Sequence record: MT446416.1
DNA from: Escherichia virus TH47
Reading direction: 5' to 3' (one strand)
Length of the DNA stretch: 64,000 nucleotides
This document shows, in pieces, positions 1,537-59,514 of the stretch; within the stretch, counting starts at the first letter, position 1; the number at the start of each line of letters is the position of its first letter. The notes below the pieces were generated by a model. It was not told the origin of the DNA. It did not search any database and saw only the letters and a list, made by a program, of their open reading frames with translations. Made by a program: the position numbers and the translations under genes.

Positions 1537-3823
1537 ACGCAATAACTTTTTCTACTGCTTTAGTTCGTTTAGGTTTGATTGCCAATTTACCATCAATCAC
1601 ATCAAACGTTACGTTACCACCATTAACCAGAGAACCACACAACATCTCTTTAGCTAGTGGGACACGGATGTTTTGCTCAATAGTGCGTTTCATTGGACGT
1701 GCACCCATTCCAACTTTAACACCATTTGTTGCCAACCACTCACGAGCCGCTTTGGTCAGTGAAACTTTAACTTTGCGGTCTTTGATTTGTTCATTCAAAC
1801 TTCCCATGAACTTATCAATGATGCTGTCAATCGCTTCGCTGCTTAGGTCTTTGAATGTCACAATACTATCGATACGGTTGATGAATTCAGGTGGCAAGAA
1901 TGCTTTAATCGCTTTATCTTGTGCTGTATCACTACCGCTCATCCCAATACTACGCTTGGTTGAATCTGCTGCACCAAGGTTAGTCGTCATAATAACAGTT
2001 ACGTTATTGAAGTAAACAGTTTTACCTTGTGAACCAGTCAAACGTCCTTCGTCCAGAACCTGTAGGAAGGTTAGTAGTACTTTACGATCAGCTTTTTCGA
2101 TTTCATCGAGCAACAGTACTGCATTCGGGAACTGCTCAATCTTGTCGAGTAGCAGACCGTTACCAGAATCGTGACCAACATAGCCTGGAGGTGAACCAAT
2201 CAGTTTAGCAACAGTATGTTCCTGTGAAAACTCGGACATATCGAAACGAATCAGTTCAGAACCAGTTGCATCAGCCAGTGCTTTGGTAATTTCAGTTTTA
2301 CCAGTACCAGATGGCCCAACAAACATGAATGCACCTTGAACACTTGATTTATCACGCAGACCAGCACGAGCTACCATCACGTTATCAACCAGTTTCTGTA
2401 CTGCTTCTTCTTGACCGTATACACGAGAACGGAGTGCATCTGGTAGATTACGCATACGTTCACTTTCAGTGCAAGCAACCACGTTAATATCTAGGTTTGC
2501 GATACCTGCAACAACTTCTTGAATCAGTGCAACAGTGATGATGTTATCATCAGTTTCACGAGAACGTACTTTCGCTGCCGCCGCATCCATTAGGTCGATT
2601 GCTTTGTCAGGGAAGTGTTTGTTCTTCAGGAACTTATCACTTAGTGTAATAACTGCATCCATTGCTTCAGTACTGAACTCTACGTTATGGAAAGTTTCAT
2701 AAGTAGATTTCAAACCATTCACAATCGCACGGGTTTCATCAATTGATGGCTCAACTACATCAATTTTCATGAAACGACGAGTTAGTGCACTATCTTTTTC
2801 GATGTTTTTACGATATTCATCGTAAGTTGTTGCACCGATTACACGAATCTCACCACGAGATAGTGCAGGTTTGAGCATGTTGCTCATATCCATAGAACCG
2901 TTGCTTGCTGAACCAGCACCAACCATAATATGGATTTCATCGATGAACACAATAGTGTTTTCACGTTTCTTCAGTTCTTTTAGTAGGTTATCGATACGTT
3001 CTTCGAACTCACCACGGTACTTAGTACCAGCAGTCAGTGCACCTACGTTCAGAGACAGAATTTCAACATCTTTAAGATGCTCTGGTACTTCACCATCAGC
3101 GATTGCCTGTGCTAGACCATCAATGATTTGAGTTTTACCAACACCAGCTTCACCAGTCAGGATGGCATTCTTCTTAGTCTTACGGGCCAGAGTTTCAATC
3201 AGTGCAGAAAGCTCTTTCTGGCGACCAATCATTGGGTCAAGTTTACCTTCTTTTGCAAGTGCTGTTAGGTTAGTGGTGTAATCTTCTAAACCTTTTTGTT
3301 TGGACGATGGTTGCTGTTGTGCCACTTTTTTCTCCCCAGTTGGCTCATCACTAATGCTTTGAAGGTTGATTCCGTTGTCGATTGCTTCTACGTGCTTCTG
3401 TAGAGTTCGTGCTGCTTCAGTACAAGTGATACCCTCTTCACGCAATGCTGCTTCTAGTGCAGTATTTGGGAAGGACAAACACTCAAACAGTACAAAATAA
3501 GCATCAATTGAGAAATCATCACGTTTAAGTTGCTCAATTACTGATTTCTTAGAAAGTTCCTGAACTACACGGTTCACGAGAAGTGATGTGCGGTTCGCTT
3601 CATCACCATCAGCACTTTTAGGTGCATGTGGGAATGTTGTATTCTTCAGATATGCAATCAAACGACCGTGTAGGTTGTCTGCATCGATGTTCATATCTTC
3701 AAATACTGCTTTGATGCTATCGATTGTCAGTACTGTAGCACTTAGATGGTCAATAGTCAAGAAGGTATGACCCAGAGAAGTTGCCAGTTCGTCGCTTTTT
3801 TTGAATAATTGGGTAAGATTCAT
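1535..3823 (-). CDS. ClpA-like two-domain AAA+ unfoldase (Clp ATPase family)
   Basis: Clp N-domain-like N-terminus; two Walker A motifs (GEAGVGKT, GPSGTGKT) and Walker B motifs (VFIDEIH, LLLDEIEKA); start placed at ATG with AGGAGA RBS (ORF track starts at upstream GTG 3847). Confidence 0.9.
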   Translation of the reverse strand: MNLTQLFKKSDELATSLGHTFLTIDHLSATVLTIDSIKAVFEDMNIDADNLHGRLIAYLKNTTFPHAPKSADGDEANRTSLLVNRVVQELSKKSVIEQLKRDDFSIDAYFVLFECLSFPNTALEAALREEGITCTEAARTLQKHVEAIDNGINLQSISDEPTGEKKVAQQQPSSKQKGLEDYTTNLTALAKEGKLDPMIGRQKELSALIETLARKTKKNAILTGEAGVGKTQIIDGLAQAIADGEVPEHLKDVEILSLNVGALTAGTKYRGEFEERIDNLLKELKKRENTIVFIDEIHIMVGAGSASNGSMDMSNMLKPALSRGEIRVIGATTYDEYRKNIEKDSALTRRFMKIDVVEPSIDETRAIVNGLKSTYETFHNVEFSTEAMDAVITLSDKFLKNKHFPDKAIDLMDAAAAKVRSRETDDNIITVALIQEVVAGIANLDINVVACTESERMRNLPDALRSRVYGQEEAVQKLVDNVMVARAGLRDKSSVQGAFMFVGPSGTGKTEITKALADATGSELIRFDMSEFSQEHTVAKLIGSPPGYVGHDSGNGLLLDKIEQFPNAVLLLDEIEKADRKVLLTFLQVLDEGRLTGSQGKTVYFNNVTVIMTTNLGAADSTKRSIGMSGSDTAQDKAIKAFLPPEFINRIDSIVTFKDLSSEAIDSIIDKFMGSLNEQIKDRKVKVSLTKAAREWLATNGVKVGMGARPMKRTIEQNIRVPLAKEMLCGSLVNGGNVTFDVIDGKLAIKPKRTKAVEKVIA

Positions 3824-7280: not shown

Positions 7281-8379
7281 ATACCCCAATTAGTGGGATA
7301 CCTGTTATATTAAGTAGAACAGATACTTGAAGCTTAACTGACTCACCTGCCGAAAGGTTGTTTACTATACCATCTACGCGGAACCCTAAGTTTTTATTAG
7401 AGTTAAGAGAGTTAATCACCCAGTTTTCGTAATCCGCTTTTGTAATACCATTCGGATTTGGGAGAGTTGGGTCAACACCATTAATTACCATAGATACATC
7501 CCAATTAGGGCGACTACTTGTAATTACATCCTTGATTGATTCTAGTTGTGTAATGCGACGTGGGTCTGGAATCTGACTTGCACCAATTGAACCAGGAACA
7601 AATTTACCTTGGTTATCAACATAGAACTGACCTTTAATGAAAAATGTTTTTGAATTATACGGAAGAGAAACAATTTCACCTGATGAATCACTAACTTCAC
7701 GAATCATAATTTTCAATTCATAAAAATAGTTACTACCAAATTCAAACACACCAGTACCATTTGTGAATGTTGTCCAGTTATTTGAATCAACCTGTGAAGT
7801 ACCACCCATATTGAAGTAAGCTAATGGCTTAGTACTGTTACTTTGTGTAAATTCAATATATTTCTTACCTGTATCATAGTTGATATCAAGTAGTGTGGAG
7901 TACTCTTTATTTTCTGGACGAGATGTTTGAATTTCACGCCATTCTTTATTTTTCATTAGGACACGAAGGGAATCACCATTACTGGTAAGAACCATACGAC
8001 CCATAATACTATTTTCACCATCTGGTACGGTGTTGAAAATTGAAATCATTGGGATAGATGCCCAGTCAGCTTCAGATGCAGTATCTACTGGCTGACGAGC
8101 ATTATCAACTAATGCAAGAAGTAGTTCGCCAGTGTTGCCAGTATTTCTGTACCAAATCTGACCATTAACGTTACCACGAGGTGCAGTTGCTCCACTGAAG
8201 TTCTCAACCAAGTGGAGGAAGTTTTCGTTCCATGCTTGACCGTAACCAACTTTATTTCGACCTGCAAAGTTTAACGGTACTGGGTTACTACCAGGTTGGT
8301 TTGGTCCTAATATTACGTTATTTGGAATGGTAGCATAAACGCTACCATTACTTCTATAAATTGTATAACTTACACTCAT
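7279..8379 (-). CDS. putative tail fibre / baseplate-associated protein
   Basis: 366-aa ORF, RBS AAGGTGA; Gly/Asn/Thr-rich beta-type composition typical of fibre proteins; no enzymatic motif. Confidence 0.5.
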   Translation of the reverse strand: MSVSYTIYRSNGSVYATIPNNVILGPNQPGSNPVPLNFAGRNKVGYGQAWNENFLHLVENFSGATAPRGNVNGQIWYRNTGNTGELLLALVDNARQPVDTASEADWASIPMISIFNTVPDGENSIMGRMVLTSNGDSLRVLMKNKEWREIQTSRPENKEYSTLLDINYDTGKKYIEFTQSNSTKPLAYFNMGGTSQVDSNNWTTFTNGTGVFEFGSNYFYELKIMIREVSDSSGEIVSLPYNSKTFFIKGQFYVDNQGKFVPGSIGASQIPDPRRITQLESIKDVITSSRPNWDVSMVINGVDPTLPNPNGITKADYENWVINSLNSNKNLGFRVDGIVNNLSAGESVKLQVSVLLNITGIPLIGV

Positions 8380-9507: not shown

Positions 9508-9616
9508 TGTTAAGCCCTTTTAGTAGTGAACTTTCATTTATTTATTAATGGCAACGAAATGTATTTTGTACTGATAAATATTGGTATATGACATTAACTC
9601 ATACAAGGGAAATATT

Positions 9617-54475: not shown

Positions 54476-55063
54476 TTATTCTTTTGTAATGTTTAGTTTA
54501 GAAACGAAATGGTTTTTTGCTTCTTCAAATGTCATTGAAGTATATACTGGGTTCCAATTATCGTCAAGATCTGTAAGTACTTTAACTTCCATTACATCTT
54601 CAGGTGTGTAGAATTGCCATGTATTATGGTCTGGCTCATAATTAGGATCTAGTACAAAAACTGTTCCATTCTGACCATAAACTTCCCCATCATTTAATAG
54701 TTCACTGAAGAAATCTTCACCTGTTGTTGGGTCTTCGTATGCATTATAAAAACGAAAAACAACATTCTCAACATCAGTTCGGGTAGTACCATCGTCTTCA
54801 TCATATTCCACCAAACGGTCCTGATGAAATACTAGGTCAATAGCACCAATGCGAGGTTTATTATGTGGAGTTTTGATTTCTTGCTGGGAATTGTAATCCA
54901 TACGTTCAGTACTGATGAATACACCACTTGGTGTGATTTCAATACCAGACACATTTTCTGGTGAATAGTACGCTTCACACATATCATCAATATACATGTG
55001 CTCATGATACACTTCCATTTCAGGGTTCTGCATCAACAGTGCTGCTAGGTCTTTTGCTTTCAA
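54476..55063 (-). CDS. hypothetical protein
   Basis: TTG start 7 nt after GGAGA, overlapping upstream stop (TTGA coupling). Confidence 0.5.
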   Translation of the reverse strand: MKAKDLAALLMQNPEMEVYHEHMYIDDMCEAYYSPENVSGIEITPSGVFISTERMDYNSQQEIKTPHNKPRIGAIDLVFHQDRLVEYDEDDGTTRTDVENVVFRFYNAYEDPTTGEDFFSELLNDGEVYGQNGTVFVLDPNYEPDHNTWQFYTPEDVMEVKVLTDLDDNWNPVYTSMTFEEAKNHFVSKLNITKE

Positions 55064-55801: not shown

Positions 55802-55812
55802 ATATATTCTCC

Positions 55813-55842
55813 AAAAGAAAAGGAGAGTCACAATGACTCTCC
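55813..55842 (-). terminator. rho-independent terminator after Dps-like gene
   Basis: perfect stem GGAGAGTCA/TGACTCTCC with 3-nt loop, followed by T-run on the minus strand. Confidence 0.6.
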
Positions 55843-55849
55843 ATATATT

Positions 55850-56293
55850 TTATTGTAAAACTTTAAGTTTGTAAAGCATTCCTTCACAAAAACTCATAAT
55901 GTCTTCTAGTGTGTTAGTACTGCCATAGTCTTCAGCCTCTTCAAGCATAGCATGAATGGCTTTACATTGACTAACATATTCTTCAAGAATTGGTACACAA
56001 TCCTCGATAGGGGTAAAACGATAACTGTTACCAGTACCTACCTGTAATGCCCCGCGAGTGTTCATAATACCCTCTACAAATGCATCAACGTACTCAGGTA
56101 ACTCTTTGTATAGTTCATCCAATTGTAGATGCTTAGTGTAGAAATGGCTCTGTAAATGCCAGTTGTGAGCAGCAGCACTTAAAAATAAACTATTCTCAAT
56201 AAATGTAAGTAGTACTTCATCATAAGAACTATCTTCTTCAGTATCTCCAATAAAGTCCATAACGTGGCGAAGTGTTGATATATCTTCATTCAT
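55850..56293 (-). CDS. Dps/ferritin-like protein
   Basis: segment AAHNWHLQSHFYTKHLQLDELYKELPEYVDAFVEG aligns with Dps ferroxidase region (H, H, D, E conserved); start at ATG with AGAGGA RBS. Confidence 0.45.
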   Translation of the reverse strand: MNEDISTLRHVMDFIGDTEEDSSYDEVLLTFIENSLFLSAAAHNWHLQSHFYTKHLQLDELYKELPEYVDAFVEGIMNTRGALQVGTGNSYRFTPIEDCVPILEEYVSQCKAIHAMLEEAEDYGSTNTLEDIMSFCEGMLYKLKVLQ

Positions 56294-56322
56294 ATAATTA
56301 CATCCTCTATGTGTATTCATAT

Positions 56323-56964
56323 TCATATTTTATTTATAGTAATGGTGATATTAAAACTTTCTATATCATTCTTTAATATATCAACTCGTTTTCGTAAACC
56401 ATCTATAACTTCTGGTATTACATCATTTTTATACATCTCTATTAACTCTTCTATATATTTTTTCTTTTCTATCTGCCACGCACGATGTGCATCTTCTGGA
56501 GTTTCATAAACACCAATGTATGTTGTTTTATTATATATTGTTATTTTAGCACAATAAGGTTTGGTATATTCACTCACCATGTCTTTTGGACGTTTTCTGT
56601 ATATCACTCCCATTCCATATGGTGATGCATTTGCAGCACTGTCTAGTATACAGTAATTCAATTCTTTGGGAACAAATGCACATGTTTCAGGAGAATAGAT
56701 TTTCTTACTCCCACCAATAATATCTTTATCTAATTGATATCCTTCTTTATAATGTGATTTGTACCAAATTTTAAATTTTGAATAATACTTCCACTCATCA
56801 CATACAACAGTTCCAATATAAGAACCCTTAGCCTTATCGGAATAGCATCGGTCTAACATACGTTGCCATGCACAATATATTGCTCGATCTGGATTTGTTA
56901 TACTAGCATCACCTTTTATATCACAGATGCCATGACCATAAAACTTCTTCATTAATTTATCCAT
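56323..56964 (-). CDS. AP2-like DNA-binding domain protein (homing-endonuclease-associated family)
   Basis: C-terminal YIGVYETPEDAHRAWQ resembles AP2 domain; N-terminal W..M..RC...Y....C..W pattern. Confidence 0.4.
   Translation of the reverse strand: MDKLMKKFYGHGICDIKGDASITNPDRAIYCAWQRMLDRCYSDKAKGSYIGTVVCDEWKYYSKFKIWYKSHYKEGYQLDKDIIGGSKKIYSPETCAFVPKELNYCILDSAANASPYGMGVIYRKRPKDMVSEYTKPYCAKITIYNKTTYIGVYETPEDAHRAWQIEKKKYIEELIEMYKNDVIPEVIDGLRKRVDILKNDIESFNITITINKI
56331..56338 (-). promoter_or_regulatory. T4-late-promoter-like TATAAATA box
   Basis: exact TATAAATA on the minus strand about 38 nt upstream of the Dps-like start. Confidence 0.3.
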
Positions 56965-56974
56965 ATTTTTGTAA

Positions 56975-57403: not shown

Positions 57404-58093
57404 TCACTTCGTTCTCTCGTAACTCAAGAAGTCACTACGTTTACTTCGTAAACTAGTTCCTTCTGAAAATGATAATGTACTTTAAAAGCTTGACGGGATT
57501 TGTTGAGGACTATTTCATCCCCCCGCAGGGGAATGAAGGTAATAAAAAAGAGACAATTAAGTCTCTCTTGACGATGATGGCATCGGATATTATCGAATTG
57601 CGAATTTCTCAAATTTTGGACGGATCTTTCTTGTACCAAAATTTAGAGAGCGAAAGCGGGTTGCTCGGTTTCTCTCTATCGCAGTCATATGCAACGGTCG
57701 CTGGTCTTTTCATCAACAGCACTCAGTACTAAACTCTATTCGATCAAAGTAGTACCTGTTCTCAAATTTTGGACGCAACTTTCTTGTAAAATCGCGTCCA
57801 CAATCCTTGAACTCCCTTAGCAAATTCGTAAGGTGCGAACCTTATACATCTATCTAGGAACTCTCTGTGTGCTTATTGGAGTTCTTTATACAGCCGTGTC
57901 GCCGTGATTCGTGGTCTTATCTCGTGTTTGTTTGATTGCCAGTACTCTAACAGGTTTCTTTTGCTGTTCGCTACAACGGTAAAGCTCATCTATCCTTTAC
58001 ATTTTCAAGAGAAGTAGGTTCTCATTATCCATTTTTCAATGTCCGTTGTCATTTTACAATATACATTATATCACTAGGATGTATTATGTCCCG
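57404..58093. other. ~0.7-kb low-coding region with direct repeats, hairpins, a minus-strand terminator and an extended -10 element
   Basis: no ORF over 90 codons; TTCTCAAATTTTGGACG repeated at about 57608 and 57751; hairpin AGAGAC/GTCTCT plus T-run (minus) near 57540-57570; TGATATAATG near 58058-58070. Confidence 0.4.
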
Positions 58094-58848: not shown

Positions 58849-58902
58849 TTATTTTCTCCAAAAAAATAGGGACTCGATTTCTCAAGTCCCTATCATAACA
58901 CA

Positions 58903-59514
58903 TTAATTGTGATTATTCAATTTCTTTTGTTCTTTTTTTAGAGCTTTCATATGTCGTCCAAAATCACGGACATGCCATATATGGTCGGTTTCCCATAGTT
59001 CTGTACGTAAACGGCGTTCTTCCAATTCTTCTGGAGTAGGAATTTTAGATTTCTTCTTATCTTTATTGAAAAAATCATTCATATGTTCTTCCAGTAGATT
59101 TCTACCCTTAACTTTTTCCAGGAATTCATCTACTGATTCAGTTTTATTAGAACGAAGACTGTTACAACGTGAACACATTGTGTTGTAATTTGACTCTAAA
59201 TCAGGTCCACCCTTAGATGCTAGTTGGTTATTATCTACTGTCATCAGTACTTCATATAGACCACAAACTGCATAGACATTTAAGTGAGGTTTACCATATA
59301 CCGGATCTGTGCTATGTGAACGCTCAATGCGAACTTCAGTAGCTTCAATGCCACACGCAACGCATTTGCAATTCTTAACGAATGTCAGTACTTTTTGTGG
59401 GAAGTATCGGAAAGTAACACCGTTATATGTATAGCGTTTCATCTGTGTACTTCTTTGATTTAACTCATTAAGAAGTGATAGTTTGGCAACATAGTAGACC
59501 TGATATTTTGACAT
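58903..59514 (-). CDS. HNH-type endonuclease-like protein
   Basis: CxxC...H...N...CxxC arrangement (CVACG, HLNVY, NN, CSRCN); GAGGA RBS. Confidence 0.45.
   Translation of the reverse strand: MSKYQVYYVAKLSLLNELNQRSTQMKRYTYNGVTFRYFPQKVLTFVKNCKCVACGIEATEVRIERSHSTDPVYGKPHLNVYAVCGLYEVLMTVDNNQLASKGGPDLESNYNTMCSRCNSLRSNKTESVDEFLEKVKGRNLLEEHMNDFFNKDKKKSKIPTPEELEERRLRTELWETDHIWHVRDFGRHMKALKKEQKKLNNHN

Follow-up and report, generated by a model that had tools for sequence, protein, structure and literature searches.

The question raised by this locus is what kind of protein is encoded by a gene at 55850..56293 (minus strand) of Escherichia virus TH47, and whether its expression depends on the T4-type late-promoter box TATAAATA lying in front of it. 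The DNA analysed is a stretch of 64,000 nucleotides of sequence record MT446416.1, which is referred to below, at its full length, as the window. A preliminary description, made from the sequence alone, had called the gene Dps/ferritin-like. The explanation that fits best as a whole, and that is favoured here with modest confidence, is that the gene encodes a Dps-type mini-ferritin, which would serve as an iron and peroxide sink, and that in one sublineage it has come to lie behind a late-type box. By sequence identity the window is assigned to Asteriusvirus (PBECO4/121Q-like jumbo coliphages). The 3-kb region around the gene shows 98% identity to Escherichia phages Turkey3, vB_Ec-M-J and fEgEco12 and about 91-92% identity to PBECO4, all four of which are Asteriusvirus jumbo phages of ~350 kb.

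In the list of open reading frames (ORFs) the gene appears as a minus-strand ORF of 158 aa (55850..56326). Translation most likely begins at the ATG at 56293, for a product of 147 aa (MNEDISTLRHVMDF..., MNEDIS...), because a GAGGA sequence stands 9 nt upstream and both the starts of relatives and public gene calls agree with it. The annotated products of relatives comprise 146 aa and begin at the codon equivalent to ATG 56293, and the exact 147-aa product has been called by gene callers on four to five public contigs. Neither of the two in-frame ATGs further upstream is preceded by a ribosome-binding site, and both overlap with the stop codon that closes the upstream ORF. The coding sequence used in this work, delimited from the ORF list, the Pfam and PHROG matches and the starts of relatives, is therefore 55850..56293 including the stop codon, and the Shine-Dalgarno GAGGA was read at 56303..56307 on the same strand.

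The TH47 protein belongs to a family that has already been catalogued. It matches Pfam DUF5856 (PF19174) with 97 bits against a cut-off of 34.6 (expectation value, E, 1.4e-27) and PHROG 858 with an E of 6.2e-35 over residues 28-157 of the 158-aa ORF. For the hhalign comparisons a family profile of 60 sequences, with the TH47 protein as its first row, was used. Against this profile T4 rI.-1 (MobD.6; NP_049716) scored 98.8% (E 5.5e-17, 119 aligned columns), and gp217 of the Vi01-like phage Sajous1 scored 99.75%, which makes it a DUF5856 member; the latter protein was called a ferritin by Phyre2 (PMC10892097). A profile search of 1.84 billion representative proteins returned 674 relatives at E <= 1e-3. 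The earlier statement that phage Dps-like proteins are uncommon does not hold for this family, since tblastn found homologues in 390 of the 50,697 phage records and the profile adds T4 rI.-1. The phages bearing homologues include Rak2-like jumbo phages, Ackermannviridae (Cba120 orf108 and others) and T4-like Aeromonas phages, and in these last the homologue is named rI.-1. The homologue of RaK2 lies at 7802..8236 and is 73% identical; by its position it is probably RaK2 ORF015, which has already been linked to RI.-1 (PMC3622015). Lengths of 185-832 aa are reached by many DUF5856 members (e.g. P0038, P0046, P0067, P0094, P0138), in which the Dps-like domain occupies either the N- or the C-terminal end. 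In ten long members of this size range Pfam shows DUF5856 alone and the extensions match nothing, so the fusions provide no functional hint.

The family membership of the protein and its resemblance to Dps or ferritin are already present in public annotation and partly in the literature. In close relatives the homologue is annotated as a "starvation-inducible transcriptional regulator" or "starvation-inducible DNA-binding protein", and in the related record SE_PL it is named "ferritin like protein". In the library of papers that was searched, none mentions DUF5856. Phage-borne genes of the ferritin superfamily are also found in Lactobacillus phages and in the gut 'Gratiaviridae', where they have been described as homologues of bacterial Dps or DNA-binding ferritin-like proteins and have been proposed to limit iron and peroxide damage during infection (PMC6669764, PMC8008677); by this description they would differ from DUF5856.

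The Dps-like identity of the gene product, as proposed in the preliminary description, was borne out by profile comparison. As a single sequence the protein matched solely Dps proteins in the PDB, and these matches were weak (E 0.002-0.03). In an hmmsearch of the PDB with a profile of 60 family members the matches were 2D5K (7.6e-10), 1JIG (1.6e-7) and 1QGH (2.4e-7), all of them Dps. The hhalign comparison of the family profile with five Dps sequences, in an alignment taken mostly from search output, gave 96.7% and an E of 4e-10, with ligand aligned to ligand. The protein shares its predicted fold and the placement of the ligands on helices A and B with the Dps proteins of Listeria innocua (1QGH) and S. 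aureus (2D5K), B. anthracis Dlp-2 (1JIG) and M. smegmatis Dps2, although its identity to Dps proteins is only ~20%. In Dps a Trp follows the first His, whereas in the TH47 protein a Leu occupies that place and a Trp precedes the His instead. Helix D can also be aligned to Dps 2PYB (DYGSTNTLEDIM...LYKLK versus DYGTANIMDDIM...LWMHK).

In both the hmmsearch and the hhalign alignments H46, H55, D59, Y62, D70 and E74 correspond to H31, H43, D47, Y50, D58 and E62 of Listeria Dps, respectively. This ligand block, H46-E74 on helices A and B, is encoded at 56072..56158 (minus strand), and in both profile alignments the A-B hairpin is 3 residues shorter than in Dps. H46, H55 and E74 were found in all 170 members in which conservation was counted, D70 and Y62 in 169 of them. 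With counts of 169-170 out of 170 for H46, H55, D70 and E74, the four iron-ligating residues of Dps are, in the aligned sequences, exactly the residues that the family keeps invariant. More broadly, H46, H55, D70, E74, Y62, Y141 and K142 are all present in the TH47 protein, and each is conserved in 163-170 of 170-172 members. The preliminary description had placed both His, the Asp and the Glu at matching positions. All four residues are indeed there with Dps-like spacing, but the first His is H46 and not H43. An ungapped alignment sets H43, 12 residues before H55, on the first Dps His, and this is probably what the earlier reading saw. In the family H43 is not conserved (112 H, 53 W), whereas H46 is invariant. 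The hhalign comparison with a single E. coli Dps, a sequence checked against the known residue numbering alone, was weak: it scored 34.5% and placed H43 on H51 with other gap positions, and the assignment of H46 relies instead on the hmmsearch and on the comparison with five Dps sequences. In ferritin and bacterioferritin the intrasubunit di-iron centre is made of E...ExxH...E...ExxH ligands distributed across four helices. The 147-aa sequence contains no ExxH motif, and therefore the site would not be an intrasubunit one of the ferritin or bacterioferritin type.

The predicted structure points in the same direction. An AlphaFold2 model built with 60 diverse members reached a predicted local distance difference test score (pLDDT) of 91.6 and a predicted template modelling score (pTM) of 0.84; it replaced a first, mediocre model obtained from 22 close relatives (pLDDT 77). 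A short N-terminal helix (4-15) is followed in the model by four long ones (24-48, 52-80, 96-119 and 123-145). The predicted fold is thus a four-helix bundle, in agreement with the check suggested in the preliminary description, in which any other fold would have counted against a ferritin-like protein. In a Foldseek search the top PDB matches were nearly all Dps (probability 1.0, template modelling score 0.6-0.69), with M. smegmatis Dps2, P. aeruginosa PA0962, B. subtilis MrgA and the Dps of E. coli and Listeria among the neighbours. This is support at the level of the fold and no proof of family membership. Taken with the profile and ligand results, DUF5856 looks like a divergent, phage-held branch of the Dps (mini-ferritin) lineage.

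Several observations weigh against a Dps-type mini-ferritin. The match to Pfam Ferritin (PF00210) stays below threshold, at 15.6 bits against a cut-off of 24.5 (E 0.016), and that to the NCBIfam Dps equivalog (NF006975) reaches 16.1 bits where 114 are required. The Foldseek E-values lie between 3e-3 and 0.1 over both models (3e-3 to 6e-2 for the better one) and never fall below 1e-3. D59, the equivalent of D47, is variable in the family, with 88 D, 32 N and 27 G. Residues 81-95 form a coil in both models, with a pLDDT of 91 for this block in the better one, at the place where Dps has its BC helix. In Dps, a hollow dodecamer with 23 symmetry, this helix sits on the two-fold axis. Since it is replaced by a 15-residue coil in the models, the dimer, and hence the inter-subunit site, may differ from that of Dps.

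Family membership, homology to Dps, conservation of the ligands and the predicted fold are shown by the results above. The mechanism that would follow from the favoured reading can be outlined as below, and for oligomerisation, catalysis and physiological role it is what we infer from the alignments and the model. Two subunits would pack antiparallel, as in Dps, so that H46 and H55 of one chain and D70 and E74 of the other would form an inter-subunit di-iron site. Such a site could oxidise Fe(II) with H2O2 or O2, and the removal of Fenton-active iron would protect the replicating and packaging phage DNA, as well as the infected cell, through a long infection. The protein would probably act as a soluble iron and peroxide sink and not as a DNA coat, because it is strongly acidic. 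The calculated isoelectric point (pI) of the 147-aa protein is 4.34 and its net charge about -19, and the first 30 residues include 9 acidic residues (D/E) and 1 basic residue (K/R).

The same charge bears on the possibility that the protein is a DNA-binding nucleoid protein or a transcriptional regulator. Support for that role comes from the names in public records alone, which go back to the Dps of E. coli. That protein attaches to DNA by a lysine-rich N-terminal tail, although a basic tail is not universal among Dps proteins. No basic DNA-binding tail of the E. coli type is found at the N- or C-terminus of the TH47 protein, and Pfam finds no DNA-binding domain in it. Binding to DNA, regulation and mimicry of a nucleoid protein are therefore unlikely for an acidic protein of this kind; as an account of the gene, the role implied by the inherited names is highly improbable. 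The suggestion in the preliminary description that the protein might mimic a host nucleoid protein conflicts with this calculated composition, and at a pI of 4.3 neither "transcriptional regulator" nor "DNA-binding protein" is likely to be a correct name.

The relationship to T4 RI.-1 raises a different possibility, namely that the protein is an accessory of lysis timing which prolongs the latent period by contacting other proteins (in T4, RIII and the holin/antiholin system), the conserved His, Asp and Glu residues having a structural or regulatory metal role and not a ferroxidase one. The T4 protein shares with the TH47 protein the family, the four invariant residues and the C-terminal YKL motif. 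It differs in its length of 128 aa, as it has no counterpart of the ~23-residue acidic N-terminal extension of the TH47 protein. The homology of the family to T4 rI.-1 is firm, and the sole experiments on the family concern this protein: overexpressed on its own, RI.-1 extends lysis inhibition, and it also acts in synergy with RIII and alleviates the toxicity of the latter (PMC2962797). These data are, however, indirect, and they are compatible both with an antioxidant effect that keeps the infected cell alive longer and with a direct effect on lysis timing. The T4 gene sits in the rI operon beside the antiholin gene, and so does its counterpart in T4-like Aeromonas phages, whereas the neighbours at the TH47 locus are unrelated small ORFs and an HNH-family ORF. 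Because the related jumbo phage RaK2, which carries the 73%-identical homologue, has been reported to be without RI, RI.1, RIII and the T holin (PMC3622015), a role in lysis timing is less likely in the TH47 lineage. It would also give no reason for the invariance of precisely the four ferroxidase ligands of Dps. For these reasons lysis timing is regarded as an unlikely primary function.

A third possibility is that the protein is made late and is packaged in, or attached to, the virion as an iron carrier or structural protein, serving entry (the 'Ferrojan horse') or the protection of encapsidated DNA. Mass spectrometry of purified Sajous1 phage detected gp217 10 times, but the authors allow that proteins with low counts may be contaminants from cell debris, and they found no dependence on iron-uptake pathways (PMC10892097). 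The homologue bears the label "(putative) structural protein" in several records of Ackermannviridae, and the TH47 gene itself sits behind a late-type promoter box. On the other hand, the RaK2 paper treats the homologue under host interaction and its main text omits it among the structural proteins (PMC3622015). In relatives without the insertion described below, the gene lies among small non-structural genes and has no late-type box within 5-6 kb. A virion-associated role is accordingly given a low probability, below that of lysis timing.

The second part of the question concerns the box. One copy of TATAAATA is present in the window, at 56331..56338 (minus strand), and it is the sole exact match to the T4-type late consensus, as had been reported. 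This candidate late promoter ends 37 nt before the start codon of the Dps-like gene, inside the last codons of the upstream ORF. By chance 8.1 copies would be expected, so the octamer is depleted and not enriched. The shorter element ATAAATA is also depleted, about threefold, with 10 copies against 30.5 expected from shuffled sequences. Eight of these 10 copies lie 29-51 nt upstream of a start codon on the same strand. With an upstream site defined as one 15-70 nt before a same-strand start, and with all AT-only 7-mers pooled as background (5.8% of which are upstream of starts), ATAAATA ranks first of 128, with a binomial probability of ~5e-9. The motif scan placed the seven other upstream copies at 9539, 9574, 19789, 31377, 31899, 35609 and 38675, and the genes behind them include those for the tail sheath, the tail tube, a tail protein and a virion structural protein. 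In front of the tail sheath gene AATAAATAA is invariant in the window, RaK2, CBB and SE_PL, which represent four genera, while the flanks diverge. In CBB and GAP32 ATAAATA has been reported before structural genes, as has a gp55-like sigma factor encoded by CBB (PMC5259590). Owing to the depletion, the upstream placement, the conservation across genera and the CBB/GAP32 report, the ATAAATA element is very probably the late promoter of the Rak2-like lineage.

The box of the Dps-like gene combines both likenesses. It is the exact 8-mer of the T4-type late promoters read by gp55, and it is placed like the seven other upstream ATAAATA sites of the window. It differs from these in that its first position is a T, where all other ATAAATA copies carry A or G, and in being the sole copy in the non-structural half of the window. 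The T4 rI.-1 gene is likewise transcribed from a late TATAAATA promoter, which lies between tk and rI.1 and serves rI.1-rI-rI.-1 (PMC2962797).

The history of the box is tied to an insertion. It lies within the 3' end of an ORF of 213 aa (209 aa from the second ATG) at 56323..56964 (minus strand), which belongs to the HNH-endonuclease family by its match to PHROG 953 (E 5.8e-65). The match covers only profile positions 194-402 of 420, that is the C-terminal half, and no Pfam HNH domain is found in the ORF; nuclease activity is therefore uncertain. No phage in INPHARED has this ORF at the Dps-like site, but it is present on 4-5 NCBI contigs, and the same arrangement, box included, occurs on four public contigs with 97-99% identity to the window, three of 345-360 kb and one of 95 kb. 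Relative to vB_Ec-M-J, the Dps-like gene has 14 differences in its first 46 nt and 5 in the remaining ~400 nt, and the gene upstream of the insertion is near-identical right up to its stop codon. Because the divergence is concentrated in the first 46 nt and the upstream gene is near-identical, the replaced segment, which stands between two conserved genes, is placed at 56248..56974 (minus strand, ~727 bp). Besides the HNH ORF and the box, it includes a ribosome-binding site that is also new and the opening 46 nt of the Dps-like gene. The pattern resembles the outcome of homing with co-conversion on one side. The HNH-family cassette would thus have replaced the upstream region and the first codons, leaving the gene behind a ribosome-binding site of its own and TATAAATA; transcription late in infection would then probably occur in addition to any read-through, and a hairpin terminator would end the transcript.

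Three points speak against a conserved late promoter at this gene. The box is not intergenic, as it forms the codons T-I-N-K (ACT-ATA-AAT-AAA) at the 3' end of the HNH-family ORF. It is absent from vB_Ec-M-J and PBECO4, where a 30-nt spacer precedes the Dps-like gene and no ATAAATA occurs in the 5-6 kb around it. The idea that TATAAATA is a conserved feature of this type of HNH-family ORF was also rejected, as the homologous ORFs of 7t3 and JNE01 have similar C-terminal peptides and no box.

These points lend an appreciable, if lesser, probability to the view that, in this respect, TATAAATA is an unselected by-product of the codons of recently acquired foreign DNA and that the gene is expressed mainly by read-through, as in its relatives. 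The single copy falls short of the 8.1 expected and shows no enrichment, the box consists of codons, JNE01 spells the same TITINKI peptide with ATC-AAT-AAG and without the box, and relatives manage without any ATAAATA near the gene. However, the lineage avoids ATAAATA except at 29-51 nt upstream of genes, and the TH47 copy falls within exactly this interval. In T4 the 8-mer alone is sufficient to specify a late promoter. The box is moreover kept on the four public contigs that share the insertion, although these are independent, differ by 1-3% and vary by an indel of 6 nt next to it. On balance the copy before the Dps-like gene probably does fire as a late promoter, which is held with moderate confidence. 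The late-promoter idea of the preliminary description is thus plausible, given that ATAAATA behaves as a promoter element, but the box is not ancestral to the gene and either came with the HNH-family insertion or arose in it.

The immediate surroundings of the gene contain some further features. Directly 3' of the Dps-like stop codon, the terminator scan detected an intrinsic terminator-like hairpin at 55812..55842 (minus strand), GGAGAGTCA-TTG-TGACTCTCC followed by TTTTCTTTT; it has 9 bp, is G+C-rich, ends in a T-run and is identical in sequence in vB_Ec-M-J and PBECO4. Besides the HNH-family ORF, the neighbouring genes in the window belong to PHROG 10749, 9509 and 35272, all of unknown function. 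A scan for sigma-70-like promoters was uninformative (42 sites, 38.6 expected), and Rfam and tRNA scans of the 53-60 kb part of the window gave no match. Between the HNH-family stop codon and the ribosome-binding site of the Dps-like gene there is a polymorphism in the number of tandem ATGAAT copies (window 56314..56326): two copies in the window and in contigs L010 and L011, one in L009 and L012, with a distance from box to ATG of 37 and 31 nt, respectively. A second, unrelated HNH endonuclease gene lies 2.6 kb upstream (58903..59514, minus strand; PHROG 23285, E 2.6e-112) and has a strong terminator hairpin of 13 bp behind it (58894..58865). In PBECO4 an additional gene of 618 bp (gp054; 2300..2917 of the PBECO4 stretch compared) stands immediately 3' of the Dps-like gene. 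It was considered as another homing endonuclease and rejected, being a paralogue of the window ORF 54476..55063 (PHROG 18200, unknown function). Because of this extra paralogous gene beside the Dps-like gene, the flanks of the latter are a hotspot of gene gain in Asteriusvirus.

A candidate structured non-coding RNA of ~470 nt was also observed just upstream, at about 57544..58017 (minus strand), in an ORF-free gap (57404..58093) which contains no ORF of at least 90 aa. Its G+C content is 0.40-0.42, compared with 0.26-0.33 in the flanks. The element is 99.9% identical in the closest phages and 96% identical in the PBECO4 group, whose genes in this region show ~91%; in other genera it is 66-78% identical, namely in A4, GAP32, CBB, SE_PL, Serratia phage BF and phages of Yersinia and Erwinia, with 3-5 matching places per genome. 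RNAalifold predicted 74 pairs from 6 sequences, 18 of them supported by compensatory double changes. Covariation across genera is also seen in an internal terminator, AGAGAC-TTAATT-GTCTCT-TTTTT (57566..57544), and sigma-70-like boxes are found at the 5' end of the element (58092..58065 and 58052..58024). Comparison of the element with Rfam, tRNA and tmRNA gave no match.

Summarizing, the importance of the gene is modest, as it is a member of a catalogued family and the records of near-identical phages already list it, though under a misleading name. What the present analysis adds is the family-wide evidence on the ligands, T4 rI.-1 included, the argument against DNA binding, and the tracing of the promoter box to a mobile cassette. 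The window provides a clean example of a mobile HNH-family cassette replacing the expression signals of its neighbour, and the conservation of the ligands across DUF5856 supplies a biochemical hypothesis for T4 rI.-1, which is known only from the effects of its overexpression on lysis inhibition. The broadest version of the idea, that DUF5856 proteins including T4 RI.-1 are active phage mini-ferritins prolonging the life of the infected cell and that a mobile cassette has re-timed the gene in a sublineage, is tentative and, judged from the sequences, rather doubtful in its entirety. If it is true, a homing-endonuclease-type cassette would have brought the gene a new late promoter, ribosome-binding site and N-terminus, and the removal of Fe(II) and peroxide would account in chemical terms for the influence of RI.-1 on lysis inhibition, which has long lacked an explanation.

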